DNA of 62,784 nt, filler included, from a bacterium (GCA_024278215.1; 3 parts of 3 records of this genome joined end to end with filler, not necessarily neighbours in it); one strand, 5' to 3'; shown: positions 9,877 through 58,806, counted from the whole stretch's first letter. Translations and numbers: made by a program. Notes: generated from the sequence alone by a model not told the origin.

Positions 9877-10809
9877 GTGAAAGAAGTGACGACTTATGCC
9901 CCGGCGTCGATAGGCAATATCGGGCCGGGTTTCGACGTGCTGGGGCTGGCGATAACGAACCTTGGAGATATTGTGCGGGCACGTCGAAAACGCGGGCCGG
10001 GCGTCGAACTGATCGGCATAGAAGGCGACGGCGGCAGACTACCGCAGGAACCGGGCTAGAATACGGCTTCTATTGCGGCGGCGAAAGTGCTCGAAAAGAT
10101 CGGCGCGAAGGAAGGTCTCAATATCGAGATAACAAAAGGTGTTCCCTTCCCTTCGGGGCTCGGCAGCAGCGCGGCAAGCGCGGTGGCGGGCGGATATGCG
10201 GCAAACTACATATTCGGAGAGAAATTGACCAGGAACGAACTGCTCCAGTTATGCACAGAGGCTGAAGAGGAAGTAAGCGGCGGATTTTTCGCGGACAACA
10301 CGGCCGCCGCGCTTTTCGGCGGAGCGGTTGTCACACGTATCGCCGAAGGGCGTATAACTGCGATACCGCTGGGCGGCCCTGCGGACGCGGTGATTATCGT
10401 GGCGCAGCCTGATTTCCCGATGCCCACCAGGGAATCGCGCGCCGTGCTGCCTGAAAAGATAGCTCTTGAAGATTTCGTCGCCAACATGGGCGCGACCGCT
10501 GCTATTACCGCCGCGCTGTGCAAAAAAGACACAAAGCTTTTCGGCGAATCTATTGTCGACCGCGTGATCGAACCGGCGAGGGCCGGACTTATAAAAGGGT
10601 TTTCGGATGTGAAGAAGGCTGCGCTGGCACGCGGCGCACTGGGCTGCGCTATCAGTGGCGGCGGAGCTTCCGTTTTCGCGGTGGCGGACTCGAAGGCACC
10701 TGCCGACAGGATCGGCCAGGCTATGAAAAAGGCTTTCGCCGACAACGGAGCGCCAGCTGCGATCCATATTTGCAGTATAGACAGAAGGGGCGCGCGAATT
10801 TTAAGATAA
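9877..10809 (+). CDS. thrB: Homoserine kinase with in-frame TAG at codon 61 (read-through or pseudogene)
   Basis: APASIGNIGPGFDVLGLA and SGLGSSAAS lie in one frame. A single TAG at 10057-10059 splits them; read through, it gives a 310-aa ThrB. Confidence 0.9.
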
Positions 10810-10880
10810 TACCGGGCCGCGCATGTGCTTTTTTATTACAACGCAAAGGGAATACATACGAAGCGAAAGGAGTGTTTATT

Positions 10881-12257
10881 TTGAGTGACGCCAGGGGAAA
10901 AATTGACAAAAGAACATTAAAAAAACTTGTCGAGGAAGACAAAATACGGACGGTGATCACAGCAGGTGTGGACATGCAGGGCCGCCTGTTCGGGAAGCGG
11001 TTCTGCGCACAGACATTTCTCGATATCTTCAAAGGCGGCGCGGGCACGTGCAGTTGCAACCTCGGCTGGGATATGGACCTCGAACTCATCGACGGTCTCG
11101 AATTCACGGGCTGGCACACCGGCTACCAGGACATGATGGCTATTCCCGACTTCGATACTCTGCGCATATATCCGTGGTTCGAGAAAACCGCTATCGTGCT
11201 GTGCGACTCTGCGAACGAAGATGGCAGCCTCGTCGCCATCGCGCCGCGCACGATACTCCGCAGGCAACAGGAAAAAGCGGGCAATATGGGCTACATTCCC
11301 ATCATGGCCTCGGAACTCGAATTTTTCCTTTTCAATGAAACTGTGGACTCGGCGCGTGAAAAAGATTACACGAACCTGGAACCGCTATCAAAGAATTATT
11401 CCGACTACTCGATTTTCCGCGGCTCGCTGGACGAATGGATTATCAAGCCGATCCGCTAGGGTCTCAACGACCTTGGTCTCGAGGTGGAAAGCACCAAGGG
11501 CGAATGGGGCCACGGACAGGTGGAACTGGCTATCAGGTTCGCCGAAGCCGTCGAGATGGGCGACCGCCACGCGCTCATGAAAAACAGCATCAAGGAAATC
11601 GCCGCGCTCAACGGGCTGATGGCCACTTTTATGTCGAAGCACTCGACCGACGCTTCCGGAAGCGGGCTCCACATTCATACAAGCCTCTGGGACAGCGCCG
11701 GCAGGAAAAACGCTTTCTACGACAGCAAAGACGAACACGGTATGTCGGAACTGATGCGCCATTTCATGGGCGGCATGATGCACCTTGTGAAGGACATGCA
11801 GTTCTTCTACGCGCCGACTATCAATTCCTATAAACGCTACTGCAAGCAGTCGTTCGCTCCTTATAACATCAGTTGGGGTGGCGACAACCGCACGGTGACT
11901 TTCCGTATTTGCGGCCACGGCGGCGGCTGCCGCATCGAAAACAGGATCCCCGGCGCGGACGTGTGTTCATACCTCGCGCTGGCCGCTTGCCTCGGCTCCG
12001 GACTCTACGGCATCGAGAACGAACTCGAACCCATCGGACCTTTCATCACGGGCGATTCCTATGCTCATGATTCGTTGCCCGAACTACCGCGAAACATGAT
12101 GACCGCTGTGAAGAATCTCGACGAAAGCGAGCCGGTGCGCGAGATTTTCGGCGACGATGTCGTCGACCACTACGTGAAGGTCGGCCAGTGGGAGATCGAG
12201 CAGTTTCTCTCCAGTGTCACAGACTGGGAACGCCGCAAGTATTTCGAACTGGGATAA
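10881..12257 (+). CDS. Glutamine synthetase-like gamma-glutamyl ligase (PuuA/GlnA4 type) with in-frame TAG at codon 193
   Basis: AAGGAG then TTG start; DMQGRLFGKR, ASELEFFLF, then TAG 11457-11459, then EWGHGQVEL, GSGLHIH, DNRT, IENR in the same frame; 458 aa if read through. Confidence 0.88.
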
Positions 12258-12270
12258 TATGGAAAGAGCA

Positions 12271-12288
12271 GGCCGATTGCAATCGGCC
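12271..12288. repeat. Perfect 18-bp palindrome matching the fused ends of family A
   Basis: GGCCGATTGCAATCGGCC. Confidence 0.7.
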
Positions 12289-12332
12289 CGTTTGAGATAT
12301 AGATATATGAAGATGACGGAGGATTGCGAATT

Positions 12333-13097
12333 ATGAAAAGACTGAAGGATAAAGTCGCGCTGATTACCGGCGCGGGCATGGGACAGGGACAGGCCGCCGC
12401 GGTGCTTTTCGCCGACGAAGGCGCGAAGATCGTCATCGGCGACGTAAACGACAGCGCCGGCGCGAAAACTGTCGAGATGATAACCGACGAGGGCGGCGAA
12501 GCTGTCTTCCGCCATTGCGATGTGAGCAAGGAGGCCGACTGCAAGGCGCTCGTGGCCAAAGGTGTCGAAGCTTTCGGCAAACTCGACATCCTCTACAACA
12601 ACGCGGGTGTGCTGTGGAAGGATAAAGATAAATCAGTCGTCGACACGAAGGAAGAAGACTGGGACGCGGTGCTGGCGATCTGCCTGAAAGGCGCGTACCT
12701 GATATGCAAATACGGGATACCCGAACTGCAAAAAGCCGGCGGCGGCTCGATTATCAACATCGGCTCGATCTCGGGCCTCACAGGCTCGACGATCCCGCAG
12801 GATGCTTACGCCTCCGCCAAGGGCGCTCTGCGCACTCTCACCAAGTCGCTGGCCGTTCAGTTCGCCAGGGAAAACATCCGCTGCAACATTATCCATCCCG
12901 GCATGATCGACACGCCGATGCAGCATAAGTATATGAAAAACGATGAATGGACCAGGGCGGTCGAGGACAGCATTCCGATGGGCAGATTCGGACAGCCGGG
13001 CGAGATCGCCAAAGTTGCACTGTTCCTTGCAAGCGAGGAGTCGAGCTACATGACCGGCGCGGAACTCGTCGTGGACGGCGGTTTCATCGCAACGTGA
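12333..13097 (+). CDS. SDR family oxidoreductase
   Basis: TGAGMGQG, NNAG, YASAKG, HPGMIDT. Confidence 0.93.
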   Translation: MKRLKDKVALITGAGMGQGQAAAVLFADEGAKIVIGDVNDSAGAKTVEMITDEGGEAVFRHCDVSKEADCKALVAKGVEAFGKLDILYNNAGVLWKDKDKSVVDTKEEDWDAVLAICLKGAYLICKYGIPELQKAGGGSIINIGSISGLTGSTIPQDAYASAKGALRTLTKSLAVQFARENIRCNIIHPGMIDTPMQHKYMKNDEWTRAVEDSIPMGRFGQPGEIAKVALFLASEESSYMTGAELVVDGGFIAT

Positions 13098-13146
13098 TTG
13101 TTGAAAACACGTCATTGTCTTCCGTGTCTGATTATTACTGTAAACA

Positions 13147-13308
13147 GAGCCAATTGCAAAATTATGTTCGTAGCGAGGTCGAGCGAAATTGTTCAGAGCA
13201 AGGCGGATGTGTGAAATCCTCGCAGGCGTACGGACGATTTTGCGCCGATAACGCAGCTATGGACAATAGCAGCCGACCGCAGCAGAATCAGAATTTTGCA
13301 ATTGGCTC
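13147..13308 (-). mobile_element. Family A element, copy with 16-bp internal deletion
   Basis: Reverse copy of 4771-4948 lacking TTGTAGAGTACGTCGA. Confidence 0.9.
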
Positions 13309-13332
13309 AACAAACTGAAACGAGGTAATATT

Positions 13333-14763
13333 TTGTTTAAGAACCATGAAGAGTTGATGAAGTTCGTCAGGGACAACGAGATAGAAATGCTGGATCTGAA
13401 AGCAATGGACATGATAGGCCGCTGGCGACACATGACCTATTCGACGCGCCATATCAAGGAATCGGTATTCACGCAGGGCACCGGCATCAGCATGTCGCCG
13501 TATCCCGGCTACAGGGCCATCGAACAGGGTGACATGCTCGTCAAACCCGACCCGTCGACAGCATTCGTGGACCCGTTCTGCGAGGCGAAAACGCTGGCAG
13601 TGATCTGCGACATCTTCACGCCCGACGGCGAGCCTTATGTGCGCGACCCGCGCCGCATCGCCCGCAAAGCAGAGGAGACTATAAAGGCTGTCGGCATCGA
13701 TGGCCGCTCGCTGTGGCTGCCCGAGATGGAGTTCTACGTTTTCACGGAAGCGAAATACGGCTCGAAGCTCAACAAGGCTTTCTATGAAGTGGACGCATCG
13801 TGGGCTTCCTGGAATGTCGACGCCGACGAAGACCCGAACCTCGGCATCAAGCTGCCCACACTCGGCAACGGTCAGGCCGACGCACCGCGCGACCGCCTCT
13901 ACAACCTGCGCTCTGATATGGTCAAGCGCATCGAAAACGCCGGCTACCCCGTCAAGTACCACCATCACGAACTCGGCGGCCCCGGCCAGTGCGAGATCGA
14001 ACCTTACTTCAACACCCTGCTCAAGGCGGCGGACAGTGTCGCCGTTATGAAATATATGATCGCCAACACCGCGCGCGAATACGGCTGCGTTACGACTTTC
14101 ATGCCCAAACCGCTCGACGGCGTTCCCGGCAGCGGTATGCACTTCCACCAGTATCTCGAGAACAACGGCAAATCTCTTTTCTATGCCGCGGACGGCTACG
14201 CGAAACTCAACGAAATGGGACACCGGTATCTCGGCGGTCTCCTCAAACACACGTCCCCGCTGATGGCGATAACGAATCCGGGCACCAATTCATACCGCAG
14301 GTTCGGCGTTGGCATGGCCGCCCCGATGAGCCTTTTCTTCGCCTCTTCCAACAGGAGTTCCGCACTCAGGATTCCCGGCTACGCTCAGAACGAGATCGAA
14401 CAGCGCGTGGAATACCGACTTCCCGACGGCCTGTGCAATCCATACCTCGCCATGGCCGCGCAACTCATGGCCGGACTCGACGGCATCAAAAACAAAATCG
14501 ATCCAACGGCGGAAGGGTTCGGCCCGTTCGACATCAATAATTACGCGCAGTCGGACGCGGAACGCGCGAAACTCCACACCGCGCCGTCTTCTCTCGAACA
14601 GGCGCTCGCCGCGCTCGAATCGTCCAACGATTTCCTCACATTCAACGACGTGTTCCCTATGGAGGTCATCGAAACATGGATAAAACTCAAGAGGGAGACG
14701 GAACTGCAACCGCTCGGGTTCAGGCCGCACCCCTACGAGTATGAACTCTATTTTGATCTTTGA
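13333..14763 (+). CDS. glnA: Type I glutamine synthetase
   Basis: PEMEFYVF, YHHHELGGPGQCEI, TFMPKP, GSGMHFH, NRSSALRIP, C-terminal RPHPYEYELYFDL. Confidence 0.9.
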   Translation: MFKNHEELMKFVRDNEIEMLDLKAMDMIGRWRHMTYSTRHIKESVFTQGTGISMSPYPGYRAIEQGDMLVKPDPSTAFVDPFCEAKTLAVICDIFTPDGEPYVRDPRRIARKAEETIKAVGIDGRSLWLPEMEFYVFTEAKYGSKLNKAFYEVDASWASWNVDADEDPNLGIKLPTLGNGQADAPRDRLYNLRSDMVKRIENAGYPVKYHHHELGGPGQCEIEPYFNTLLKAADSVAVMKYMIANTAREYGCVTTFMPKPLDGVPGSGMHFHQYLENNGKSLFYAADGYAKLNEMGHRYLGGLLKHTSPLMAITNPGTNSYRRFGVGMAAPMSLFFASSNRSSALRIPGYAQNEIEQRVEYRLPDGLCNPYLAMAAQLMAGLDGIKNKIDPTAEGFGPFDINNYAQSDAERAKLHTAPSSLEQALAALESSNDFLTFNDVFPMEVIETWIKLKRETELQPLGFRPHPYEYELYFDL

Positions 14764-23825: not shown

Positions 23826-25643
23826 ATGAACATCCTCGGAATATCTGCATATTACCACGACAGCGCCGCCTGCCTGTTGTGCGGCGGAGAGGTTGCCGCC
23901 GCCGCGCAGGAAGAACGGTTCACGCGCAGAAAACATGACCCGGCATTTCCTTATCATGCCGCGGACTATTGTCTGCGCGAGGCCGGCATCGAACCCGCAA
24001 TGCTGGACGCTGTCGCCTTCTACGACAAACCGTTTCTCAAATTCGAGCGTTTGCTCATGACATATCTCAGCTACGCGCCCGCGGGCCTGCCCTCTTTCCT
24101 GCTGGCAATGCCTGTGTGGCTCAAGCAGAAACTGTGGCTGAGCGAGATCATCTCGAAGGAACTCGGCTTCGACGGCAATATTCTCTACCCAAGGCACCAC
24201 GAGTCACATGCCGCCGCCGCTTTTTTCCCATCACCCTTTGATGAAGCGGCTATCCTGACGGTGGACGGCGTAGGCGAGTGGACCACAGCGAGCTTCGGGG
24301 TCGGCAGAGGAAACCGTGTCGAACTGCTCCGCGACATACGCTTCCCCCACTCGCTCGGACTGCTCTATTCCGCGTTCACATACTTCTGCGGATTCAAGGT
24401 CAATTCCGGCGAGTACAAACTAATGGGCCTCGCGCCTTATGGCGAGCCGAAATACGCCGCCCTCATAAAAGACAACCTTGTCGACATAAAAGAAGATGGC
24501 TCTTTCAGGCTGAACCTGAAGTACTTCGGCTACATGGCGGGCCTGCGGATGACCAACCGCCGGTTCGCTGCGTTATTCGGATTGCCCGCGCGAAAACCCG
24601 AGACGCAACTGACACAGGAATATATGGACATTGCAAAGTCCATACAGGTTGTGACCGAAGAAATCATGCTGAAGACGGCGCGCCATATCCGCTCCGAAAC
24701 CGGTTTGCGAAACCTGTGTATGAGCGGCGGCGTGGCGCTCAATTGCGTCGCAAACGGAAAAATAGTGCGTGAAAAAATATTCGACAGCGTGTGGATACAG
24801 CCCGCGGCGGGCGACGCCGGCGGCGCACTCGGCGCGGCATACATCGCCCTTCACCACTACTTCGGCAAACCGCGCCCCTCATCGACAGGCCGCGACCGCC
24901 AGAAGGCTTCATATCTCGGACCAGCCTTCTCCACGCGCGACATCGAAACATATTTAAAAAACAACAACGCACCCTTCGAACAGCTCGACGAAGCGGATAT
25001 CCCCACACGTGTCGCAAAACTAATCACGGAAGGAAACGTCATCGGCTGGTTCCAGGGCCGCATGGAGTTCGGCCCGCGCGCGCTGGGCGCTCGCAGCATC
25101 ATCGGCGACCCGCGATCGCGCCACATGCAATCGACAATGAACCTGAAAATCAAGTTCAGGGAATCCTTCAGACCGTTCGCCCCGACCGTGCTCGAGGAGC
25201 GCGCCGGCGACTACTTCGACATAGATTGTCCAAGCCCCTATATGCTCCTCACAGCACAGGTTCGCGATGAACACAAAGTTCCGGTCTCCGACGACGACAA
25301 TCAGCGCATCGGACTTGATAAGCTGAAGGTCATACGCTCGAAAATCCCCGCCGTTACGCACGTCGATTATTCGGCGCGGATACAGTCGGTAAGCAGCACG
25401 GACAATAAGCTTTATCACGACATGATCGCCGCATTCGAGCGACTCACCGGTTGCGGGCTGGTAATAAACACTTCGTTCAATGTGCGCGGCGAGCCGATTG
25501 TATGTACACCCGGCGACGCATACCGCTGCTTCATGCGCACTCAAATGGATTACCTCGTTATGGGACCGTTTCTGCTTGACAAAAAGCAACAGTCTGAAAT
25601 TGATGTTAAAGACGATTGGGAGAAGGAGTTTCCGCTTGATTGA
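23826..25643 (+). CDS. Carbamoyltransferase (NodU/CmcH family)
   Basis: YYHDSAACL, HHESHAA, GEYKLMGLAPYG, EFGPRALG, NTSFN. Confidence 0.95.
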   Translation: MNILGISAYYHDSAACLLCGGEVAAAAQEERFTRRKHDPAFPYHAADYCLREAGIEPAMLDAVAFYDKPFLKFERLLMTYLSYAPAGLPSFLLAMPVWLKQKLWLSEIISKELGFDGNILYPRHHESHAAAAFFPSPFDEAAILTVDGVGEWTTASFGVGRGNRVELLRDIRFPHSLGLLYSAFTYFCGFKVNSGEYKLMGLAPYGEPKYAALIKDNLVDIKEDGSFRLNLKYFGYMAGLRMTNRRFAALFGLPARKPETQLTQEYMDIAKSIQVVTEEIMLKTARHIRSETGLRNLCMSGGVALNCVANGKIVREKIFDSVWIQPAAGDAGGALGAAYIALHHYFGKPRPSSTGRDRQKASYLGPAFSTRDIETYLKNNNAPFEQLDEADIPTRVAKLITEGNVIGWFQGRMEFGPRALGARSIIGDPRSRHMQSTMNLKIKFRESFRPFAPTVLEERAGDYFDIDCPSPYMLLTAQVRDEHKVPVSDDDNQRIGLDKLKVIRSKIPAVTHVDYSARIQSVSSTDNKLYHDMIAAFERLTGCGLVINTSFNVRGEPIVCTPGDAYRCFMRTQMDYLVMGPFLLDKKQQSEIDVKDDWEKEFPLD

Positions 25644-25667
25644 GCCGGGCCGCGGAAACCGGACAGC

Positions 25668-26112: not shown

Positions 26113-26160
26113 TTGTTCCGGCTGTGCCGTATCAGGAACTCACCGCCCCGAACCCAACTC

Positions 26161-42986: not shown

Positions 42987-44285
42987 TCATCCCCATGAGT
43001 AGTCCATGAGTTCGAGAACCCGCTCCGGCGCGTGAGCCGAGTAACTTGTCATTTCAGATGTTGTCGACTGCATTATCTGCGCGCGGGTCATTTCGGAAAC
43101 TTCACGCGCCATATCAGCATCCTGAATACTTGAACGCGCCGCCGCTATATTTATCGCCTGTGAGGAGACATCGTCCAGATTATTTTCAAGCCGCCTGTAC
43201 ATTATTCCCATATCGGCCCTGACATTGCTGACCGATTCGATAGCCGAGTCGAGACTGTCTATAGCCTGTTGCGCACTGTCTATCATCGTGAGATTCACAC
43301 TTGCCACGCCAAGACTGTACGGCGTGATCTCCGGCAGCGAAAGCACTATCCTGTCATCTGCCTTGTCGTCCGGCCCTACCTGGAGCACCTGGTTGGAACC
43401 GACCTGGTAGTCGTAATCGAGAGCAACGCCGTGCCTTGTGCCGCCGACATTGGCAGCCTCGATGGCAAGCACGTTTTTACCCGGCTGCAGCGCCGCCGTG
43501 ATGTCATACGTTTCAGGCACAGCCCATGATCCGAAATCCGCACCAATCAGATTCCCGTTGACGTACAGGTCGTACCCGTCGTCCGCAGTGATATGCACAG
43601 TTATTTTTGAAATCTTGTCGAACACCGTGTCAGATATCTCGAATTCACGCCTGAGGTACACTGTGTTACTGTCACTCGGGTCCCATATCCACTGCGCACT
43701 GGAGCCGGAGAAACCCGGAAGCAGGCTCGGCGGACCGTTTAAAGTCGAATTGCCTATCTTCGGTGTGTTCCAGCCTGAAGCGTCGAACCCGGTCATGTTC
43801 CAGCCGGCCGCGAAAACATCCGTTGTCTTCCAGTTGTCGTTTACTCCGCTGACAAGATCGAATGCAAGGCCCTCGAGATAATTCTTGCCGTTATAACTCG
43901 TTGCGCTCGCAACCCTGTTGACTTCATCGACAAGCGACTGGTATTCGTCGTCGAGCCGCGCGCGATCGGCATCCGATAATGTTGCTTCGTTCCCCGCCCT
44001 GACCGACAGGTCTCTCATCCTTATGAGAAGGCCATCGATCACGGATAGTGCCCCGTCGAGCGTCTGGAACAGTGAGATGCCGTCCTGGATATTGTTTTTT
44101 GTAACTTCCAGGCCCCTGATTTTCGCGGTCATCGTGTCGGAAATCGCAAGGCCGGACGGGTCGTCCGCCGCCCTGTTGATTCTCAAACCGCTCGATAGGC
44201 GTTCTCTTGTGTTGTGCAACGTAATCTCAGCCGCATATCTGTCATTGTGCGTAATCAGGTTTGAAATATTAGTTGTTATAATCAT
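42987..44285 (-). CDS. fliC: Flagellin with inserted carbohydrate-binding-like domain
   Basis: ERLSSGLRINRAADDPSGLAI and ARSSIQDADMARE; central AQWIW, ADDGYDLYVNG, GKNVLAI. Confidence 0.9.
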   Translation of the reverse strand: MIITTNISNLITHNDRYAAEITLHNTRERLSSGLRINRAADDPSGLAISDTMTAKIRGLEVTKNNIQDGISLFQTLDGALSVIDGLLIRMRDLSVRAGNEATLSDADRARLDDEYQSLVDEVNRVASATSYNGKNYLEGLAFDLVSGVNDNWKTTDVFAAGWNMTGFDASGWNTPKIGNSTLNGPPSLLPGFSGSSAQWIWDPSDSNTVYLRREFEISDTVFDKISKITVHITADDGYDLYVNGNLIGADFGSWAVPETYDITAALQPGKNVLAIEAANVGGTRHGVALDYDYQVGSNQVLQVGPDDKADDRIVLSLPEITPYSLGVASVNLTMIDSAQQAIDSLDSAIESVSNVRADMGIMYRRLENNLDDVSSQAINIAAARSSIQDADMAREVSEMTRAQIMQSTTSEMTSYSAHAPERVLELMDYSWG

Positions 44286-49552: not shown

Positions 49553-49708
49553 CGTAGCGAGGTCGAGCGAAATTGTTCAGAGCAAGGCGGAGGTGTAAAA
49601 TCCTCGCAGGCGTACTTGTAGAGTACGTCGAGGACGATTTTGTGCCGACAACGCAGCTATGGACAATAGCAGCCGACCGCAGCCGAATCAGAATTTTGCA
49701 ATCGGCTC
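49553..49708 (-). mobile_element. Family A element, truncated by the contig start
   Basis: Matches 31450-31627 from CGTAGCGAGG to ATCGGCTC. Confidence 0.9.
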
Positions 49709-49757
49709 CCAAGTGTATGCAATGGTGATAAACACATAATTATGCAATTGCTGATAT

Positions 49758-49773
49758 TGGCATTATTCTTGAT
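49758..49773 (+). promoter_or_regulatory. Sigma54-like -24/-12 promoter (GA variant)
   Basis: TGGCATTATTCTTGAT, 36 bp before the ATG; same motif upstream of the paralog. Confidence 0.55.
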
Positions 49774-49808
49774 GGACGGTTAAAGCTAAAAGAGAAAGGA
49801 GTCGGACA

Positions 49809-50474
<666 letters not shown>

Positions 50475-50528
50475 GCTTCGAAGGATTTCGGTCGTGAATA
50501 CATTTCAAGCTGAAGGGAGAATAAGGAC

Positions 50529-50981
50529 GTGAAAAAAATAATAGTGATGTTGATTGTAATAGTTGCGGCGGCGGTGTATATCTCCGGATGCGGCGGCGGG
50601 AGTTCCATCGCCGCTCCGCAGTCCCGGACCACATCCGCCAGGATACTCTCGATATCTCCGTCGGACGGGACATCCGGTGTTGCGACCGATACTGTTTTTA
50701 CAGTATCATTCTCACAACCTATGAACATGAGTTCGGTTGACGACAATATACATGTCTATCAGGGAACCGGCACTTCGGGGAGTTCGCTTACGGGAAATAT
50801 ATCATGGAACGATATGCACACGATGATGACTTTCGTTCCTGATCAGGGTTTCATGCCGGGCACAACGCACACAGTGCATTTCGGTACGGGCATGATGAGT
50901 GAATCCGGCGGAATGATGATGAACATGTCGGGCAGCCAGATGATGAACCAGGATATGTATACGTATTTCACTACTCGATGA
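50529..50981 (+). CDS. Lipoprotein with Ig-like (Big_5/SbsA-type) domain, Met-rich
   Basis: Lipobox ISGC; SISPSDG...VSFSQPMN...TFVP...YFTT. Confidence 0.8.
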   Translation: MKKIIVMLIVIVAAAVYISGCGGGSSIAAPQSRTTSARILSISPSDGTSGVATDTVFTVSFSQPMNMSSVDDNIHVYQGTGTSGSSLTGNISWNDMHTMMTFVPDQGFMPGTTHTVHFGTGMMSESGGMMMNMSGSQMMNQDMYTYFTTR

Positions 50982-51676
50982 AAGAGGGGGCGCGGATAGA
51001 AATGGCTTGTTCTACGGATAGCAGGACAAAGGGCTATAGACTCGCTTCGATGATTTACGATCCGGTCATCGAACGCGGGATGCAGCCGGTCAGGAAGAAG
51101 ACACTGGAGATCAGCAGATTGGAACCTGGCGACAAAGTGCTGGACGTCTGCTGCGGGACCGGCAGGCAGGCGGAAATCTTCGCTGAAACGGGAGCGGATG
51201 TCTGCGGCGTCGACCTTTCCGATTTTATGATTGATAAAGCGAGGAAAAAACAACGAAAAAGTCTCACCTTCATTCAGGCCGATGCGGCGGCGACCGGATT
51301 GGATGAATCTTCTTTCGATGTCGCATCAACAGGTTTCTCTCTGCACGAGGTAGATGAAGAAACCAGAACAGGGTTCCTGAATGAAATGGCAAGGGTGACG
51401 AAACCGGGCGGTTTTCTTATATTCACCGATTTCTCGATCCAAACCCGTAACGGGTATAAAAACAGGATGCGAAAAGGGCTTGCGCATTCACTTGAATGGC
51501 TTGCCGGACCGGAGCACTACCGCAATTACATGGACTGGATGCGTGCCGGCGGACTGAAGGGTTTTCTCGCCAGGAAAAATTTGCCTGTGGAAAAAGTATT
51601 TCACATGAACGGTGGTCATATTCTTATTGCGAAAGTGATGAATTCCAAATCCGAAGCGACGATTGCAAAATTCTGA
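50978..51676 (+). CDS. Class I SAM-dependent methyltransferase
   Basis: VLDVCCGTG, SFDV, RVTKPGG. Confidence 0.9.
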   Translation: MKEGARIEMACSTDSRTKGYRLASMIYDPVIERGMQPVRKKTLEISRLEPGDKVLDVCCGTGRQAEIFAETGADVCGVDLSDFMIDKARKKQRKSLTFIQADAAATGLDESSFDVASTGFSLHEVDEETRTGFLNEMARVTKPGGFLIFTDFSIQTRNGYKNRMRKGLAHSLEWLAGPEHYRNYMDWMRAGGLKGFLARKNLPVEKVFHMNGGHILIAKVMNSKSEATIAKF

Positions 51677-51694
51677 TTCCGTTGCGGTCGGCTC
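51659..51694 (+). repeat. Family A left-end fragment providing the methyltransferase C-terminus and stop
   Basis: GATTGCAAAATTCTGATTCCGTTGCGGTCGGCTC. Confidence 0.7.
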
Positions 51695-51781
51695 ATTAAG
51701 TGAACACTATTGGGGATACTGTAATTTGGATATTATAACGAAACTGAGAGCGCCACGCTGTTCGATGCCGTAATGCGTTGT

Positions 51782-52108
51782 TCACGCAAATGCGGCATCG
51801 ACTGTTTCTATGACTGGAATACGACCATCCAGATTTATAAGTTTCAGCATCTTTCCAATGTTTGCAGGAACAGCGGCAAGAATAAAATCAAGTTCTTCCT
51901 TATGTGAATTCTTCCATAGCTTTGTAATGGAGCCGAGCCCCATGCTGTCTATATGGACAACCGCTTCAAGGTCCAACACAATCGGGCCGGTTTTCTCGTC
52001 GATCAGTTTGTACATTACATCTTCGAATCCTTTATATGAGTGATAATCCAGCTCTCCGTCCAACCTGACTATTACGCCACGGTCTTTTTTATCAGTTGTA
52101 ATTTTCAT
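51782..52108 (-). CDS. STAS anti-sigma factor antagonist
   Basis: LDGELD, DLEAVVHIDSMGLG. Confidence 0.9.
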   Translation of the reverse strand: MKITTDKKDRGVIVRLDGELDYHSYKGFEDVMYKLIDEKTGPIVLDLEAVVHIDSMGLGSITKLWKNSHKEELDFILAAVPANIGKMLKLINLDGRIPVIETVDAAFA

Positions 52109-52202
52109 CTCAGCTTCCTCCGCAGTGGGTAGTGTACAAGTTGATTATAACATATACAAGCACATCGAAACCAGTGGTTGATGCGATAGAAACAATATAC
52201 TT

Positions 52203-53282
52203 TCATGCTCTCGCCGCACCCTGTATGTTGCCGCGTCGCTGCAGTTCATTCGCTATGGCTTCGATTATTTTTCTCTTGTCCGCAGCCCATGCGGGCGCTT
52301 TCAACATGCCTCGCGGTGCGTCGCCTGTAAGCCTCTGCACTATTATTTCCGGCGCGAGACGCTCGAGGTAGTCGGCAACGAGTTCAACGTATTCGCCGAA
52401 CCCGGGCAGATCGACTTCGCCCGCGTTATACATCTCTTCCAGCTTCGTATCCGGCAGCACGTGGAGCAGATGGAGCTTGACACCTTCAATACCCATATCG
52501 GAGAGGATGTCGGCGGAGCGGAGCATCATCGCTCGCGTCTCGCCCGGCAGTCCGAGTATTATGTGTGCACAGATTTTCAGGTCCGGGCGTTTTCTTATCC
52601 TCGCGACTGTATTCTCGAACGCGGCAAAATCATGCCCCCTGTTTATCGCCTTCAGTGTTTCGTCATGCACAGACTGGAGCCCGAGTTCCACCCATACCTC
52701 ATAGTCGCGTGCGAAGCCGCCCAGCAGGTCTGCAATTTCGTCTCCGACGCAGTCCGGGCGTGTTCCCACCGCGAGCCCGACAATATCTTCCGGCATCAGC
52801 GCTTCCCTGTATAGTTTATCAAGCGCATCGACCGGCGCGTACGTGTTTGTGTATGCCTGAAAATAGGCGATGAACTTACGCGCTCTGTATCTTTTCGCCA
52901 TCCGGCGCATTCCCTCTTCAAGCTGTTCGCGCACGGGGCGCGTGCGCCGCGCGGGTGTCCACACGCCGGCGCGTAATAAGTCTTCTTTCTCCGGAGTCGG
53001 GGTTTTCTCAGCAACTTCGGACTTTCCAGCCATCGCAACTGGTGTGCCGCACACAAACCCGCCTGTGTGTGCTGCTTCATTTCTATGAGTCCCGGCCCGC
53101 ACGTTCGGACTGAACCCCTCATTGTTGCAGTAGATGCACCCGCCATACCCAAATGTTCCATCCCTGTTGGGGCAAGTAAAACCCGCGTCTATCGTCACCT
53201 TATAGACCTTGCAGCCGAACTTCTCTTTCAGGTAATCGCTGAAAGCCCTGTATGGTTTTGCGTGCGCACGGTTTGCATACAT
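52203..53282 (-). CDS. TIGR01212/YhcC family radical SAM protein with internal insertion
   Basis: GFTCPNRDG...GCIYC, YFQAYTNTY, GTRPDC, ELGLQS, INRGH. Confidence 0.92.
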   Translation of the reverse strand: MYANRAHAKPYRAFSDYLKEKFGCKVYKVTIDAGFTCPNRDGTFGYGGCIYCNNEGFSPNVRAGTHRNEAAHTGGFVCGTPVAMAGKSEVAEKTPTPEKEDLLRAGVWTPARRTRPVREQLEEGMRRMAKRYRARKFIAYFQAYTNTYAPVDALDKLYREALMPEDIVGLAVGTRPDCVGDEIADLLGGFARDYEVWVELGLQSVHDETLKAINRGHDFAAFENTVARIRKRPDLKICAHIILGLPGETRAMMLRSADILSDMGIEGVKLHLLHVLPDTKLEEMYNAGEVDLPGFGEYVELVADYLERLAPEIIVQRLTGDAPRGMLKAPAWAADKRKIIEAIANELQRRGNIQGAARA

Positions 53283-53404
53283 GCTGTTTTGCCGCTCCCC
53301 TCATTGCCGAAGTATACATTATAATATTTGCGCCCGCGAATTGATTTTCTGAAGTTTTGTGTTGTAATGTGTTCAGGGCTGCCGGAGGCATCCGGCAAAA
53401 TACA

Positions 53405-53426
53405 TGAGCCGATTGCAACCGGCTCA
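53405..53426. repeat. Palindrome equal to family A ends without core
   Basis: TGAGCCGATTGCAACCGGCTCA. Confidence 0.75.
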
Positions 53427-53445
53427 CCCGGTGGAGCATTATATT

Positions 53446-53724
53446 ATGGACTGGAAGGTTTTCCTCACGATATTCGGGACCGTGCTGCTGGCCGAACTCG
53501 GCGACAAGACGCAGCTTGCGACAATGATGTTCAGCACACAGGAGAAAAACCCGCTGATCGTTTTTGTCGCGGCCGCGCTGGCGCTGGTGTTGTCGTCGTT
53601 TATCGCTGTCGTCGTCGGCCAGGCCGCCGCGAAGGTCATCCCCGCGAACCTGTTGCAGGGCATCGCCGGATTCGCCTTCATCATTATCGGGCTCCTGCTC
53701 GTATTTCCCCTTATAAAACACTGA
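53446..53724 (+). CDS. TMEM165/GDT1 (UPF0016) single-domain protein
   Basis: AELGDKTQLA. Confidence 0.92.
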   Translation: MDWKVFLTIFGTVLLAELGDKTQLATMMFSTQEKNPLIVFVAAALALVLSSFIAVVVGQAAAKVIPANLLQGIAGFAFIIIGLLLVFPLIKH

Positions 53725-53737
53725 CGGAGGCGCGTTT

Positions 53738-54139
53738 TTGGACCGCGAAATACGGAAAACCAGAGTGCGGCAGCTTGGCAGCGAACTTCAGGTTCTATCA
53801 TCAAATATGCTCGACGAACTCGACGAGTTGAACTTACACTCCAGCCGCGAAGCTGCCGCCGACCTGCACCGGCGACTCGACTCCATCACTGCCGCAATGC
53901 AGAAGATGATCAAGGATATCGTACACAATATGGAACATCTGGGCATGGACGATCTCACCGACGAATGCCGCGAAATGTACTCGATGCTCGACATCTCACG
54001 GAAGTGTTCCGTCGAACCCGGTAGTTTCAGAAACTTCACAAACAAACTTATCCCGCTGATACGTATGCTGGAGAACTGGAGCCGCCGGGGTCCCTTCGAC
54101 GCGGGCTTCACACCGAACGATACGGAGACTGTTTTATGA
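53738..54139 (+). CDS. Hypothetical helical protein
   Basis: GGAGG RBS with TTG start; ATGA overlap with the next gene. Confidence 0.65.
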   Translation: MDREIRKTRVRQLGSELQVLSSNMLDELDELNLHSSREAAADLHRRLDSITAAMQKMIKDIVHNMEHLGMDDLTDECREMYSMLDISRKCSVEPGSFRNFTNKLIPLIRMLENWSRRGPFDAGFTPNDTETVL

Positions 54140-56415
54140 GACGCGCTTATGCCTTTATAGCTGTAATCACAATCATGGCCGCTTCGGCCTGCCCCTGCAT
54201 CGGAGCGATAAATATGGGAGTACACCCCGACAACAACAGTGTGGATATTGTCGTCGACGGACATCAGTTCATACTCGGAATGTTCCCGGAAATACAGGGA
54301 ATGCAGAAGACACTGACGCCGCGCGACGGCTCGCTAAAGCTTACAAGTGTAGCAGAGTCGAAACCTGAAGACACGGAGCTGGGCAGGATAAGCACAACGA
54401 CACTCATCTACAGCGAATCGGGCGCGGAAGATATTCTATATCTTCATCTTACGATCTATCACGACATGAAAGCGGTGGCCGTCGCTTTCGATTATGAAGG
54501 AGAAATGAACCTGCGTCCGGAGAGCGGGCTGCGACTCGTAATAAACGACATGCCGGCGTTCACTTCCGCGATGGGCGCTGAGCGGTACAAAGATCACTGG
54601 ACACGCCCCTCTTTCGCCGACAAACCCGGCGATCTTCCCCGCCACACGCAATTCATTATCTGGAAGGACGACGTCGCGGGTTACGGCGCGGCGATACCAC
54701 TCGTGGGCGGCGGCATGCGCAGCGATTTCTGTCCGCACAGGGAAAAACTCTCGGTAGCTATGTCGAGCTACGACTCGGGTTTCATCCCCGATGTCGCTCC
54801 GGCAATGGCTGTCGCTTGGGGGCTCGATCCCTACGAAACCATACACAGACTCTACAAAGTCGGTTTCGATTTCATGGGTACTCCGGGCAAACTTCGCACG
54901 GAAAAAGAATACCCGGATATATTCAACCACTTCGGATGGTGCTCGTGGAACGCCTTTCATTCGGCAGTGCGCAGCGAAGATATAATCAGCGCGGCGGCTT
55001 CGTTCAAAGAAAACAATTTCCCGCTGAGATATATCCTTGTGGATGACGGATGGCAGGATATCGGCGAAGACCGGAACCAGCGCAAACTTTACAGCTTCGA
55101 CGCAAACAAAAAGTTTCCCGGCGGCATGAAAGCGCTCACCGATACACTCAAAAATGAATACGGCATTTCGTGGGTCGGTGTGTGGCACACATACCAGGGC
55201 TACTGGGACGGAATCGCCGAAAATTCGGAAATCTACAGAAATTACGGCAAGTCACTCATGAAATCATTGGGCGGTTCACTGTTTCCCAACCCGAAGAAAA
55301 GGAAAGGACTTCGTTTTTTCAACGCATACCATGAAAAACTCAAAAGCGAAGGGATCGACTTCGTGAAGGTCGACAACCAGAGTTCGGCCCACAACTTTAC
55401 AATGCACTTGATGCCGATCAGCTACGCATCCCTGGGCTGGCAGCAGAACCTCCAGATGTCCGTCGAAAAGAACTTCGACAACGCGATCATAAATTGCATG
55501 TGCATGACCATCGAAAATATTTATTACTGGATGAAATCGAATATCGCGCGCAGCAGCGACGACTTCTTCCCCAATGTCCCCGACAACGCCCGCACGCACG
55601 TACTGCACAATATTTACAATTCATTGTGGTACTCCGAACTCGCCTGGCCGGACTTCGACATGTTCCAGTCACATCACCCGCAGGCGGAAATGCACAGTGT
55701 GCTGCGAGCGATCAGCGGCGGCCCGGTTTATGTCACAGACACACCCGGCATGCAGAATTGGGACCTGCTGTGGAAGCTTGTTTTCAATGACGGCACGCTG
55801 CCGCGCGCGGACCACCCGCCATATCCCACACGCGACTCGCTGTTCGTCGATCCCGCTGTCGAAGCAGTACCTCTGAAGGCATTCACACATGTCGGCGACA
55901 CAGGTATCCTCGCGGCCTTCAACGTGCTGGGCTCGGGCGGTCGCGTCATGGGCACGGTGTCGCCGTCGGATGTCGAAAACCTCGACGGCAAATACTTCGC
56001 CGTATATGAACATATAACCGGTGTGCTGAAACATGTGCATCACAAAGGCAGACTCCCGGTAAATCTGCCCGAGTTCGGAAGCCGGCTGTATGTAATAGTA
56101 CCGATAATCGACGGCGCGGCGCCCATCGGCCTGCTGAATAAATATCTTTCCACCGCGGCGATAACCAAAACGGAATATGAAGATGAATACCTGCTGGTCG
56201 GACTTCGCGAAGGCGGCGAATTCGGCGCGTGGCTCGAGGCGGAACCCTATGCCGTAGCCGCAGGCAACGACAAAGTCTACCAGAAAGGCGACTGGTATTT
56301 TAAGGACAATTTCTTTAAATTGGACATTCCCGGCAACGACCCTGTCGAGCTCAAAATATACATCCGGCACAAAGGTTGCCAATGCAGGGAAAACAAAGAA
56401 AAGAGATGCGAGTGA
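54136..56415 (+). CDS. Sip1/raffinose-synthase-like GH36 alpha-galactosidase, secreted
   Basis: FGWCSWNAF, DDGWQ, GYWDG, DFVKVDNQ, RSSDDF, PDFDMFQS, ISGGPVY. Confidence 0.92.
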   Translation: MRRAYAFIAVITIMAASACPCIGAINMGVHPDNNSVDIVVDGHQFILGMFPEIQGMQKTLTPRDGSLKLTSVAESKPEDTELGRISTTTLIYSESGAEDILYLHLTIYHDMKAVAVAFDYEGEMNLRPESGLRLVINDMPAFTSAMGAERYKDHWTRPSFADKPGDLPRHTQFIIWKDDVAGYGAAIPLVGGGMRSDFCPHREKLSVAMSSYDSGFIPDVAPAMAVAWGLDPYETIHRLYKVGFDFMGTPGKLRTEKEYPDIFNHFGWCSWNAFHSAVRSEDIISAAASFKENNFPLRYILVDDGWQDIGEDRNQRKLYSFDANKKFPGGMKALTDTLKNEYGISWVGVWHTYQGYWDGIAENSEIYRNYGKSLMKSLGGSLFPNPKKRKGLRFFNAYHEKLKSEGIDFVKVDNQSSAHNFTMHLMPISYASLGWQQNLQMSVEKNFDNAIINCMCMTIENIYYWMKSNIARSSDDFFPNVPDNARTHVLHNIYNSLWYSELAWPDFDMFQSHHPQAEMHSVLRAISGGPVYVTDTPGMQNWDLLWKLVFNDGTLPRADHPPYPTRDSLFVDPAVEAVPLKAFTHVGDTGILAAFNVLGSGGRVMGTVSPSDVENLDGKYFAVYEHITGVLKHVHHKGRLPVNLPEFGSRLYVIVPIIDGAAPIGLLNKYLSTAAITKTEYEDEYLLVGLREGGEFGAWLEAEPYAVAAGNDKVYQKGDWYFKDNFFKLDIPGNDPVELKIYIRHKGCQCRENKEKRCE

Positions 56416-56458
56416 ATGTTATGGAATGTTTGTATCACTATCCCGATTCCGGCCCCGC

Positions 56459-56481
56459 CCCGCATTGGTGAGATATGCGGG
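56459..56481 (+). repeat. Family B short form
   Basis: CCCGCATTGGTGAGATATGCGGG; further copies near 8431-8460, 45166-45188 and 62303-62334. Confidence 0.75.
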
Positions 56482-56524
56482 ACATAGCATATAGTACCTG
56501 AAGGAAAACCTTAAAACGCCTTTT

Positions 56525-56703
56525 GAGCCAATTGCAAAATTCTGATTCGGCTACGGTCGGCTGCAATTGTTAACAGTTGCGTTGTCGGCACAAAATCATC
56601 CTCGACGTACTCTACAAGTACGCCTGCGGGGATTTTGCACCTCCGCCTTGCTTCCGACCAATTTCGCTCGACCTCGCTTCGAACATAATTTTGCAACTGG
56701 CTC
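56525..56703 (+). mobile_element. Family A element (179 bp, more diverged)
   Basis: GAGCCAATTGCAAAATT...AATTTTGCAACTGGCTC. Confidence 0.9.
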
Positions 56704-57000
56704 TTTTAACTATATGGACCGCTTGAGAAGTATGTTCTACATGGAAAAACCTCAATCCCGCCGTACCTCTTTTAACCCTGCTGCACCTCTCGAAAAATGT
56801 GCAGAGAGCAACACAAACAGTTATCACAAAATATGCTGAGGCGGGATACGGAGATCCCGCCCTTTTTCTGCTCTTTCAACTAAATTATTCCCTTACATCT
56901 TTTCATCGTTGGCGCGACACTGGTATCATCCAATTTCAAAATCCTGATCAACGATATTGAAAAAAGTGCCCCGGCGGAGTAAAATGCGTCGTAGTAATAT

Positions 57001-57073
57001 GCGGAAATAGCTCAGTTGGTAGAGCATCAGCTTCCCAAGCTGAGGGTCGCGGGTTCGAGTCCCGTTTTCCGCT
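57001..57073 (+). tRNA. tRNA-Gly(CCC)
   Basis: Acceptor stem GCGGAAA/TTTCCGC, anticodon arm TCAGC-TTCCCAA-GCTGA, GGTTCGA T-loop; CCA not encoded. Confidence 0.96.
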
Positions 57074-57129
57074 CTTTCGTAACGGCAGAAAAGATGCTGT
57101 ATCCTGTGACGGTGATACTGTGCATTATG

Positions 57130-57159
57130 AAAAGAACCGGGCCGAAGCCCGGTTCTTTT
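57130..57159. terminator. Bidirectional intrinsic terminator
   Basis: AAAAGAACCGGGC-CGAA-GCCCGGTTCTTTT between the convergent tRNA and esterase genes. Confidence 0.85.
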
Positions 57160-57189
57160 CATACCTGTTTCAACTTCTGAATTTTACAA

Positions 57190-58806
57190 CTATTTTTTCG
57201 CTGAAGCTTTTTTCTTCTCAGTTTTCGCTGAAGCTTTCCGGCTTTTTTCAAGGCCGGTGACTTCGGCGATGTGCGAGTCGATAGTTTCGAGCACTTTATC
57301 CGCCTCAAGGTCCAAAAGCATCTCGTGACCGGATTTCTTGAACCAGACAACTTTCTTATCCGTCGATTTGATCTTTTGCGGGATTATACGCCCGACTCGT
57401 GGCGACACCACCGTGTCATTCTTTGATTGCACAATAAACAACGGCAGATTGAACTTTTTAAGCCGTTTTTCGACATCGCCCGCGGCATGAAAGAGAGACG
57501 CGAATGATTCTGTGGCGAAGAACGGGTAATTGCGGTTGTTCTGCTCCTTGCAGAAATCGTCTGCGTATGCGTTGGGACTGTCCCAGTATTTAAAGACCTT
57601 GCTCAACACGGGTGTGAGAGCAGACATCGGGTCTGCAAACTTGAGGGCAGGCGCGAGAAGAATAACATCGTCGATGAGTTCAGGCCGCTTGATGCCGAGG
57701 TCGAGCGACACCAGCCCGCCCATAGAGTGACCGCACACAATGATCTTCTCCGCATGTTCGGATAATTCCTCGAGCGCCGCTTCGGCGTCCTAATACCAGT
57801 CGTCATAAGTCGTGCCGACCATATCATGCGGCACCGTGCCGTGGCCGCGGAGGATCGGGAACCTGTATGCTATGCCCCTGTCCTCGAGATACGGAGCGAG
57901 CGGCGACACGCAACTGATGTGAGATGTGAAGCCGTGCAGGACCAGCGCGCCCCATTCCGATTTGCCGCTCTTTTTCGGGTAAAATGTCAGCCCGCGCGTG
58001 TCCGGTTCCTTGATGGGCACTTCAATCGGGACAAAACATCGGTCATGGTCGACAAGGTCGGATATCGCTTTCATCACCTGGTTGGTATACTTGCGCAGTT
58101 TCTTCCTGTCGACATCCTTCATATCGGTTTCCTTGAAATGTATGGGTTTGCCGTAGCGAATCGTGATCGGAAGCTTTTTCTGCACAGGCGGCATCTCAAG
58201 GCGTGGATAAGCCTCGGGCGGAAACGCCTGGCCTGTGCCGGAAATACCTGCTGGAATGATCGGCACACCGGCTCGTATCGCCATGCGCACGACTCCCGTA
58301 TGGCCGCGCAGAAGTCCTGTCTCCGGCTCGAGCTCGGCCCTCGACACCTCTTCCTCGCCCGGGATCGTACCCTCAGGGAATATCGCTATGAGCCAGCCTT
58401 CCTTAAGTTTTTCCACAATATCGCTCAGTCCGTCGTTGTCCCCGCCGCGCTTTATATATACGGATTCACTTAACTCGATCATCTTGCTCAGCACAGGCCA
58501 GTCTACAAAATCGCTTTTCGCAATAAAATGAAGCTTCCTCTCGCTCATCGAGCCGAGCACCTGCGCATCCAGCCAACTCTGGTGATTCGCCGCCACTATC
58601 GCTCCGCTTTCAGGAATGTTCTCGAGACCTATTATCTCAAGATCGTTGTTTTTCTCGAATCCATTCCTCATGTTTGTTTTTATCATATCCGCCATGGCAT
58701 CACGAACCGAGTCGTAAACGCCCACCTGCTTCACCAGGCCAAAAGCGCCCTCGAGCACTTTGTCCATCGGTGTAGCAAGCTTGTTCAATAATTCAAAACG
58801 CTCCAT
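57190..58806 (-). CDS. PlsC-type acyltransferase fused to alpha/beta esterase, in-frame TAG at codon 339
   Basis: NHQSWLD, FPEGT; LHGFTS, LRGHGT, DDWY-TAG(57790-92)-DAEAALEEL...GHSMGG, SGH in the same frame; 538 aa if read through. Confidence 0.88.

Follow-up and report, generated by a model that had tools for sequence, protein, structure and literature searches.

Three in-frame TAG codons in otherwise intact genes of an uncultured anaerobe are lineage-specific and look young

Three genes of an uncultured anaerobe, a relative of UBP15-type MAGs, are each interrupted by one in-frame TAG. The TAGs are absent from all relatives and look young. Fresh gene-breaking mutations fit the data better than an altered genetic code, and the explanation we put forward, with a likelihood somewhat short of even, is that the three TAGs are recent nonsense substitutions, reflecting either gene loss under way or leaky alleles.

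Three interrupted genes

The window, by which we mean the whole stretch of DNA that was analysed (62,784 nucleotides, filler included), consists of three contigs (1-28604, 28705-49452 and 49553-62784) separated by N runs and a TTAATTAATTAA spacer. Two of the TAGs, in thrB and in a gene for a glutamine-synthetase-family ligase (GS-like), lie on the first contig; the third, in an acyltransferase-esterase fusion gene, lies on the third contig. The curated gene set comprises 49 genes and 17,561 codons, and 47 of these genes are complete. The stretch 26113-26403 is probably no gene. The features referred to below are as follows.

9877..10809, + strand: thrB (homoserine kinase), 310 codons, one interruption
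10057..10059, + strand: in-frame TAG at codon 61 of thrB, context GGC TAG AAT, creating CTAG
10881..12257, + strand: GS-like ligase, 458 codons, one interruption
11457..11459, + strand: in-frame TAG at codon 193 of the GS-like gene, context CGC TAG GGT, creating CTAG
57190..58806, - strand: fusion of a PlsC-type acyltransferase and an alpha/beta-hydrolase (carboxylesterase-like), 538 codons, one interruption
57790..57792, - strand: in-frame TAG at codon 339 of the fusion gene, within the hydrolase domain, context TAT TAG GAC
808-1638, - strand: purQ
13333-14763: GlnA, distinct from the GS-like ligase
38294-38905: rnfE
57001-57074: tRNA-Gly(CCC), found by ARAGORN and Rfam, the sole tRNA in the window

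The read-through product of thrB matches the NCBIfam thrB equivalog NF002288 with residues 6-307 (profile positions 2-302 of 303), scoring 286.6 bits against a cut-off of 194, and the homoserine kinase structure 4p52 in the PDB aligns to it across the TAG position (X) with E = 5.9e-74. Residues 121-454 of the GS-like read-through product correspond to positions 3-344 of 344 in Gln-synt_C (E = 3.6e-93), and PDB entries 11zs and 5dm3 align to the protein over 6-456 and 12-456, again across X. This ligase scores under the cut-offs of the equivalogs for GlnA, type III and GGputSyn. The fusion protein contains an Acyltransferase domain (57-189) and a Hydrolase_4 domain (288-500), and its alignment to solved structures likewise runs across X. 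The same fusion of about 520 aa is present in 119 of the 120 homologs listed, the remaining one being the window's own 338-aa fragment, P0011. By codon-usage score, both flanks of every TAG are clearly coding (0.21-0.32 in frame), and most other frames are negative. The coordinates, coding flanks and full-length family matches confirm what had been noticed in a sequence-only reading of this DNA, namely three in-frame TAGs in otherwise intact genes.

An unbiased scan for internal stops, taking those with 30 open codons on either side (n = 433), returned ten with coding-like flanks on both sides: the three known TAGs, three borders of same-frame adjacent genes and four stops antisense to known genes. 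As all seven of the others are gene borders or antisense, the sense frames contain no internal TAA or TGA. The tally for the 49 genes (17,561 codons) is thus TAG 3, TAA 0 and TGA 0, and no frameshift was found where family profiles or relatives permit checking, homolog-less genes lying outside such checks. The earlier claim that internal TAA, TGA and frameshifts are absent therefore holds, for frameshifts within the checkable genes. Three random nonsense changes would all be TAG with P = 0.07-0.10, so the TAG-only pattern taken alone is not significant. Where relatives cover the window (7,340 nt), there are two internal stops; in 79,955 nt of the relatives, counted with best-frame filtering, there is none (p = 0.007). 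The high density of nonsense lesions was itself the reason for picking the window. Apparent stops left over in the relatives proved to be upstream ORF extensions or antisense ORFs. A shared sequence or methylation motif was rejected, the three sites having nothing in common beyond TAG. Splitting into two genes by re-initiation was also rejected: thrB and the GS-like gene have no convincing ribosome-binding site and start after the TAG, and in the fusion gene the GTG after the TAG would yield a fragment lacking half the fold.

Age and ancestry of the TAG codons

To place the TAGs among homologs, we aligned the three genes to related loci, the best of which, in a contig search, is 71% identical to the window, and to database proteins. 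At seven related loci the thrB ortholog adjoins the GS-like gene, and in none of these seven genomes is there a stop at either site, making the TAGs lineage-specific. The thrB column holds K in six and N in one of these loci, and the GS-like column holds N in four, R in two and I in one. Among database homologs, the thrB column (n = 29) is occupied by K 11, M 6, E 5, N 3, R 2, G 1 and S 1, the GS-like column (n = 20) by N 6, R 6, K 3, D 2, E 1, I 1 and Q 1, and the fusion column (n = 37) by E 20, A 8, D 3, N 2 and one each of S, Q, K and H; not one of these 29, 20 and 37 aligned homologs is broken at the column. The closest homolog of thrB (P0241, 83% identity) is full length with E at the TAG column, next to the invariant N62 that adjoins the TAG codon. 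The closest homolog of the GS-like protein (P0121, 91% identity, 458 aa) is also full length with E at the column, the next two having D, and the five closest fusion homologs (69-75% identity) all have E. Alignment of homologs at the TAG columns had been proposed as a check on read-through. No TAG is conserved in any relative, which speaks against pyrrolysine, and the closest homolog carries Glu at all three sites, which fits a recent suppressor somewhat better.

Since the closest homologs (83%, 91% and 75% identity) are full length with glutamate, the likely change is GAG to TAG, and the ancestral codons were likely GAG. The ancestral residue at the thrB site is uncertain, with E in the closest homolog versus K in most others. 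Glutamate in the closest homolog at three of three sites has a null probability of 0.004 when the mutation spectrum is uniform or rich in transitions, and of 0.08 when G:C>T:A is the sole change allowed; combined with the TAG-only pattern, the null is 0.0003-0.002, and the probability that all three sites share any one residue is 0.009-0.12. Because GAA is twice as frequent as GAG (742 vs 387, counted in an earlier gene list of 17,157 codons), Glu-to-stop changes would be expected to yield TAA more often. The three sites fall at percentiles 0.73, 0.98 and 0.85 of column variability (combined p = 0.03, or 0.09 among Glu columns), the GS-like column being among the most variable 2%. This agrees with the earlier suggestion that the sites are non-catalytic.

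The neighbouring bases bear on the age of the TAGs. The window contains only seven CTAG sites (observed/expected 0.03), and C precedes 14 of its 633 TAG trinucleotides. Two of the three in-frame TAGs create CTAG. The probability of this is 0.0015 for a draw from resident TAGs and 0.54 for new changes of GAG, 53% of whose 403 occurrences are preceded by C. By this measure, the in-frame TAGs have the neighbour context of GAG, unlike the resident TAGs of this genome, and look very young. As in a young nonsense allele, the stop is absent from close relatives and one mutational step away, and the flanks are unchanged. The divergence of thrB and the GS-like gene does not exceed that of the intact neighbours SDR and GlnA, as judged by three-point branch ratios, which are no true rate test, the window being the outlying lineage for intact genes as well. 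At columns that are invariant elsewhere, the three genes have 0, 3 and 0 private changes, within the range of other sequences, and GC3 is ordinary. Old or decaying pseudogenes were rejected on these grounds: one lesion per gene, no frameshift, no raised divergence and normal GC3.

Competing readings of the interruptions

If the TAGs are recent nonsense substitutions, they would have arisen as independent single-base changes of glutamate codons in one lineage, most likely GAG to TAG (G-to-T). A dedicated recoding system would not be involved, and a suppressor would presumably be absent from the remainder of the genome as well. The alleles could be fresh knock-outs, in which case gene loss would be affecting threonine synthesis and two accessory enzymes, the GS-like ligase and a lipid enzyme; or they could be leaky, with a little full-length protein made by ordinary near-cognate read-through. 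Two of the hits fall in neighbouring genes, thrB and the GS-like gene, of one conserved cluster, as would be expected if the cluster is now dispensable. The placement of all three TAGs in variable columns counts against null alleles, for which the variability of a column should not matter. A further point against this reading is the high density of lesions, three in 49 genes, all of them nonsense changes and none a frameshift. Belinky et al. (2021, PMC7918605) describe briefly persisting in-frame stops, on the scale of polymorphism, as widespread in bacterial genomes.

A less probable alternative, to which we give about half the weight of an even chance, is an amber suppressor tRNA (anticodon CUA) that partly reads TAG as Glu, Gln or some other residue and was probably gained recently, so that UAG would have a dual meaning in chromosomal housekeeping genes. 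GAG-to-TAG changes at tolerant positions would then be nearly neutral while RF1 would still mostly terminate at TAG. Such a tRNA would account for internal stops that are TAG in three cases and TAA or TGA in none, for the lack of frameshifts, for the glutamate in the closest homolog at every site (null 0.004-0.08), for downstream parts that are intact, coding-like and retain their invariant residues, and for an in-frame stop density above that of the relatives (p = 0.007); the variable columns (combined p = 0.03-0.09) point weakly the same way at n = 3. However, the 62.6 kb window encodes no CUA tRNA, its sole tRNA being Gly-CCC, no relative examined has an in-frame TAG, and the case comprises three sites. 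Stops in pseudogenes, moreover, can line up with certain residues through mutation alone, as the Codetta paper warns (PMC8629427). The use of TAG as a terminator also speaks against adaptation to read-through. The 47 complete genes end in TGA (25), TAG (12) and TAA (10), which bears out the twelve TAG terminators counted earlier, and TAG ends only 5 of 78 ORFs in UBP15-type loci (p = 0.006). Far from being avoided, TAG terminators are thus about four times commoner in the window than in relatives, and they have no back-up stops: the median distance to the following in-frame stop is 22 codons for TAG and 21.5 for TAA/TGA (p = 0.89). Extensions past five terminal TAGs (DUF362, TPR, response-regulator, SxtJ and AOR) score -0.25 to +0.11, that is, non-coding or weak, the +0.11 belonging to a 29-codon AOR tail that is too short for judging. 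Further hidden in-frame TAGs, including upstream of the raffinose-synthase-like gene, were rejected at scores of -0.44 to -0.03, AOR apart. Complete reassignment of TAG was rejected as well, given 12 terminal TAGs and just three TAGs among 17,561 internal codons; the SxtJ match ends at profile position 98 of 99, before its terminal TAG, in agreement with the earlier view that TAG is not fully reassigned. Because the sites look very young from their CTAG context, any suppressor must be recent, and the GAG-like neighbour context disfavours an old, established dual-use code. Of the amber read-through or expanded code first proposed, then, the TAG-only interruptions, the role of TAG as a true terminator and the non-catalytic, variable columns stand, whereas pyrrolysine is unsupported and an old dual-use code is disfavoured.

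We regard it as improbable that the TAGs are consensus errors of metagenome assembly, caused by G-to-T damage at low coverage or by the assembler picking a minority allele. All three are compatible with G-to-T, a known signature of library damage, and a CTAG context suits any new or false change. The window's fragment proteins P0011 and P0242 are singletons in the protein database, and hence the bases are unconfirmed by any second assembly. Against this, only about 3.5% of random substitutions in these genes make stops (5,406 of the 154,413 that are possible, by the codon counts of the earlier 17,157-codon list), so that three stops imply about 80 errors in 51 kb, far more than short-read consensus sequences contain; private changes at invariant columns are not in excess in the three genes, there are no indels, and the sites are mid-contig and outside repeats. 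Very unlikely indeed is a pyrrolysine reading of TAG through pylT, pylS and pylBCD, a system of archaea that use methylamines and of certain bacteria. In its favour, Pyl-decoding bacteria employ TAG both to terminate genes and to encode a residue, and the thrB column is Lys in many homologs. However, searches of the window proteins with Pfam and NCBIfam found no pyl genes, and the window has no methylamine methyltransferase (mttB, mtbB, mtmB) or corrinoid genes, its lone radical-SAM gene being of the MnmL/YtqA type. No tRNA-Pyl (CUA) was found by ARAGORN or Rfam in the window, nor was one found in eight related loci. The TAG positions are conserved in no ortholog, the nearest homologs carry Glu rather than Lys, and the affected genes encode housekeeping or accessory enzymes; in a study of bacterial Pyl, the TAG-containing proteins examined for Pyl were the methyltransferases (PMC8318568). 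RNA structure 3' of the in-frame TAGs (PYLIS-like) is not evident either, with z = +0.57, -0.74 and +0.64, compared with -0.18, -0.88 and +0.53 for three terminal TAGs. The pyrrolysine suggestion of the sequence-only reading is therefore not supported in the window, where pylTSBCD and a CUA tRNA are lacking, the TAGs are unconserved and TAG terminators are not avoided. A literature search on UBP15, in-frame TAG and pyrrolysine, amber suppressors and UAG tRNAs in MAGs returned no report of TAG recoding for this lineage.

Significance and relation to known systems

If the TAGs are fresh knock-outs, they would reveal gene loss under way in an uncultured, community-dwelling anaerobe, including threonine auxotrophy, and would caution against taking a TAG-only pattern in three genes as evidence of recoding. 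If a suppressor is present, a bacterium would be reading UAG as an ordinary amino acid outside the pyrrolysine system, the first such natural case, and the genome would give a glimpse of how stop-codon capture begins. On either reading, the three genes should be annotated as interrupted, not split. The neighbour-context test, in which an in-frame stop is compared with resident copies of its trinucleotide or with the presumed precursor codon, may help to date such sites elsewhere.

Full reassignment of UAG occurs in TAG-recoded phages, and ciliates have reportedly reassigned UAR to Gln or Glu. As in those systems, the internal UAGs align to Glu/Gln-like positions; unlike in them, TAG ends 12 of 47 genes, with non-coding or weakly scoring sequence beyond, and accounts for 3 of 17,561 internal codons. 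Pyrrolysine decoding (pylTSBCD) shares the codon UAG and its dual use in bacteria, but the window differs in having no such machinery and in placing its TAGs at unconserved positions, in Glu columns and in genes unrelated to methylamine metabolism. In amber suppressor strains (of the E. coli supE, supD and supF type), the anticodon of a tRNA is mutated to CUA. The resemblance there is that TAG would be partly sense yet terminating, with TAG-only interruptions tolerated at non-critical positions, and the difference is that no suppressor tRNA was found within the window. We know of no natural amber suppressor in bacteria that inserts Glu. Comparable in-frame stops in otherwise intact genes are said to exist as the 'pseudo-pseudogenes' of Salmonella. 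The Codetta paper gives all known bacterial reassignments as concerning UGA (PMC8629427). Set beside the polymorphism-scale in-frame stops described in PMC7918605, the window is distinguished by having three in 49 genes, all TAG and all at Glu columns; what it shares with them is that each gene is intact and conserved apart from one nonsense codon, which is restricted to one lineage and possibly subject to low read-through.

Three genes interrupted by TAG

The window joins three contigs (1–28604, 28705–49452 and 49553–62784; GC 0.53, 0.52 and 0.505) through N runs and the TTAATTAATTAA spacer. All three TAGs reported by the sequence-only reading were recovered, in the same genes and at the same positions:

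9877–10809, plus strand: thrB; TAG at 10057–59 (codon 61)
10881–12257, plus strand: glutamine-synthetase-family (GS-like) ligase; TAG at 11457–59 (codon 193)
57190–58806, minus strand: PlsC-acyltransferase/alpha-beta-hydrolase fusion (esterase fusion); TAG at 57790–92 (codon 339)

Family searches were run on the read-through proteins with X placed at the TAG, and each of the three gave an end-to-end match. Residues 6–307 of ThrB align to positions 2–302 of 303 in the equivalog profile NF002288 (286.6 bits versus a cut-off of 194), residues 121–454 of the GS-like ligase align to positions 3–344 of 344 in Gln-synt_C, and the esterase fusion carries Acyltransferase at 57–189 and Hydrolase_4 at 288–500. 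Alignments to solved structures also cross X in all three proteins, bearing out the proposal that each frame continues past its TAG to a full protein. The GS-like protein scores under the equivalog cut-offs for GlnA, type III and gamma-glutamylputrescine synthetase.

Pfam, NCBIfam and codon-usage scoring were used to curate 49 genes, and in their 17,561 codons we counted three internal TAGs and no internal TAA or TGA. An annotation-independent scan of every stop with 30 open codons on either side (n = 433) returned coding-like flanks at ten: the three TAGs, three boundaries between same-frame adjacent genes (all TGA) and four stops antisense to known genes. No frameshifts were seen in the window genes that profiles or relatives allow to be checked. 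The 47 complete genes end in TGA (25), TAG (12) or TAA (10). TAG is a genuine terminator in the window, because the stretches 3′ of terminal TAGs have non-coding codon-usage scores (−0.25 to −0.03), the exception being a 29-codon tail past the TAG of the AOR gene (+0.11). The sequence-only reading thus holds in its TAG-only internal stops, its twelve TAG-terminated genes, its absence of frameshifts (in the genes so checked) and its view that TAG is not fully reassigned.

Curation placed purQ on the minus strand at 808–1638 and rnfE at 38294–38905. At 808–2001 and in other places, longest-ORF calling favours long spurious antisense ORFs over true genes, for example 814–1926 (plus strand) across purQ, and coding-like antisense frames also occur at IleRS, PurA, MaoC and a TPR gene. 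The gene that ends the rnfCDGEA cluster (35301–39518) combines RnfB (residues ~1–215) with an NAD(P)-binding Fe-S flavoprotein domain resembling GltD (205–688) in one fusion (gene at 39566–41665, plus strand). At 23826–26084 (plus strand), the gene for a small SxtJ-family protein comes after that for a NodU/CmcH-type carbamoyltransferase and shares its frame; the ORF beyond them, 26113–26403, lacks a coding-like score and is probably no real gene. A 1,124-aa ORF (5039–8413, plus strand) has a strong coding signal (0.29) and no Pfam or NCBIfam family above cut-off. A flagellin (42987–44285, minus strand) contains a central insert (residues ~205–279) weakly matching glycoside hydrolase sugar-binding domains. 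An ATGA overlap translationally couples the gene for a raffinose-synthase/Sip1-family protein (54136–56415, plus strand; Pfam E = 8e-82) to the gene before it, which encodes 133 aa and has no assigned family. Neither a coding-scored ORF nor a family match was found at 53283–53737 or at 62195–62611, which is AT-rich.

Residues at the TAG columns

For the esterase fusion (368 matches at E ≤ 1e-3, 120 listed), we aligned 37 sequences, namely the closest 29 and eight from further down the list, excluding the window's own fragment P0011. The five closest among the matches listed (69–75%) carry Glu at the TAG column; the 37 aligned of 368 show E 20, A 8, D 3, N 2 and one each of S, Q, K and H. The GS-like ligase gave 5,895 matches (E ≤ 1e-100; 120 listed), the closest listed being P0121 (91% identical, 458 aa), with Glu; the next two listed (76% and 74%) have Asp, and the best 20 of 5,895, which were aligned, show N 6, R 6, K 3, D 2, E 1, I 1 and Q 1. 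For thrB (646 matches at E ≤ 1e-60, 120 listed), the closest listed, P0241 (83%), again has Glu, and the 29 aligned of 646 show K 11, M 6, E 5, N 3, R 2, G 1 and S 1. Because the closest homologs listed carry Glu at all three columns, the nearest known state is Glu, one step (GAG to TAG) from the stop; for thrB, a Lys precursor (AAG) is nearly as plausible. The window's fragment proteins P0011 (338 aa) and P0242 (240 aa) are singletons.

A single scan of the GS-like protein against species-representative genomes, a collection outside which the window's own genome lies, yielded eight loci: seven in 'bacterium' MAGs of UBP15 type (UBA6099, ADurb.Bin236 and others; 65–71% identity) and one in a Hydrogenedentota MAG (54%). 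In seven loci the GS-like gene is immediately preceded by thrB, and an SDR gene and then true GlnA come next after it. The window's cluster spans 9877–14763 (plus strand), its order kept in six to seven related MAG loci; L004, L005 and L007, three of the related loci, have ~3.2 kb between SDR and GlnA. The thrB column in seven relatives reads AAG/AAA (Lys) in six and AAT (Asn) in one, and the GS-like column reads AAC (Asn) in four, CGC/CGA (Arg) in two and ATC (Ile) in one. None of these seven has an internal stop in either gene. By best-frame tblastn, the relatives' conserved sequence (79,955 nt) contained no credible in-frame stop, whereas the window had two in 7,340 nt (p = 0.007).

Age of the TAGs

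CTAG occurs seven times in 62.6 kb of the window (observed/expected 0.03), and 0, 0 and 1 times in the related loci L002, L003 and L006:

CTAG sites: 808, 4810, 10056, 11456, 32496, 40640, 60656

This suggests that CTAG is strongly avoided across the lineage, via a very-short-patch-type repair or restriction system. C precedes 14 of 633 TAG trinucleotides on both strands, and two of the three in-frame TAGs stand in this context. The probability of at least two in three is 0.0015 for long-standing TAGs under equal avoidance and 0.54 for new GAG changes, C preceding GAG in 53% of 403 codons. The divergence of thrB and the GS-like gene is no higher than that of their intact neighbours SDR and GlnA, a comparison that is crude because the window is an outlying lineage. 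Window-private changes at columns invariant in other homologs number 0, 3 and 0, inside the range of other sequences, and GC3 (thrB 0.62, GS-like 0.72, esterase 0.64) is unremarkable beside a window mean of 0.63 ± 0.08. The three lesions are very recent, and an old, settled feature of the genetic code is disfavoured.

Recoding or fresh substitution

Within the window we found no pyl genes, methylamine methyltransferase or CUA tRNA, the sole tRNA being Gly-CCC. The pyrrolysine decoding raised by the sequence-only reading is highly improbable: its machinery is not found in the window, the TAG positions are not conserved and the interrupted genes are not the sort that would host it. The amber suppression proposed with it fared better. 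A TAG-only outcome has a probability of 0.07–0.10 under random nonsense substitution. That the nearest homolog carries Glu at every one of the three sites has a probability of 0.004 under uniform or transition-rich spectra, or 0.08 if G:C>T:A changes alone occur; jointly, the two reach 0.0003–0.002. Variability at the TAG columns is also on the high side (percentiles 0.73, 0.98 and 0.85), with a combined p of 0.03 that becomes 0.09 when the comparison is restricted to Glu columns. A recently acquired amber suppressor would account for this pattern and is still compatible with the young TAG context and unadapted terminators. As hints of a tolerated or translated TAG, however, these are modest and partly interdependent, and some prompted the window's flagging. 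Against recoding, the window lacks a CUA tRNA, and its TAG terminators are commoner than in relatives: TAG ends 12 of 47 genes here, while in the UBP15-type loci L002–L008 the figure for long ORFs is 5 of 78 (p = 0.006), or 2 of 50 in a non-redundant subset (p = 0.003). These comparisons are no more than indicative, because the gene sets differ. No back-up stops are evident past TAG terminators (median distance 22 versus 21.5 codons, p = 0.89), and no stable RNA structure was found 3′ of the three TAGs (z = +0.57, −0.74 and +0.64). We regard a recently acquired suppressor as rather unlikely. Window GC (0.52) lies below the 0.53–0.64 of L002–L008.

A consensus error of the assembly is less probable again, because three stops would imply a calculated ~80 substitution errors in 51 kb and the three genes carry no such load of changes. 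According to the Codetta authors, mutation itself makes the stops of pseudogenes line up with particular residues (PMC8629427). That three GAG codons of a single lineage each changed to TAG recently and independently, with no dedicated TAG-decoding system involved, comes a little short of an even chance. The adjacency of two of the three within one conserved cluster counts for this reading, as do bacterial in-frame stops being reported as common and short-lived (PMC7918605).
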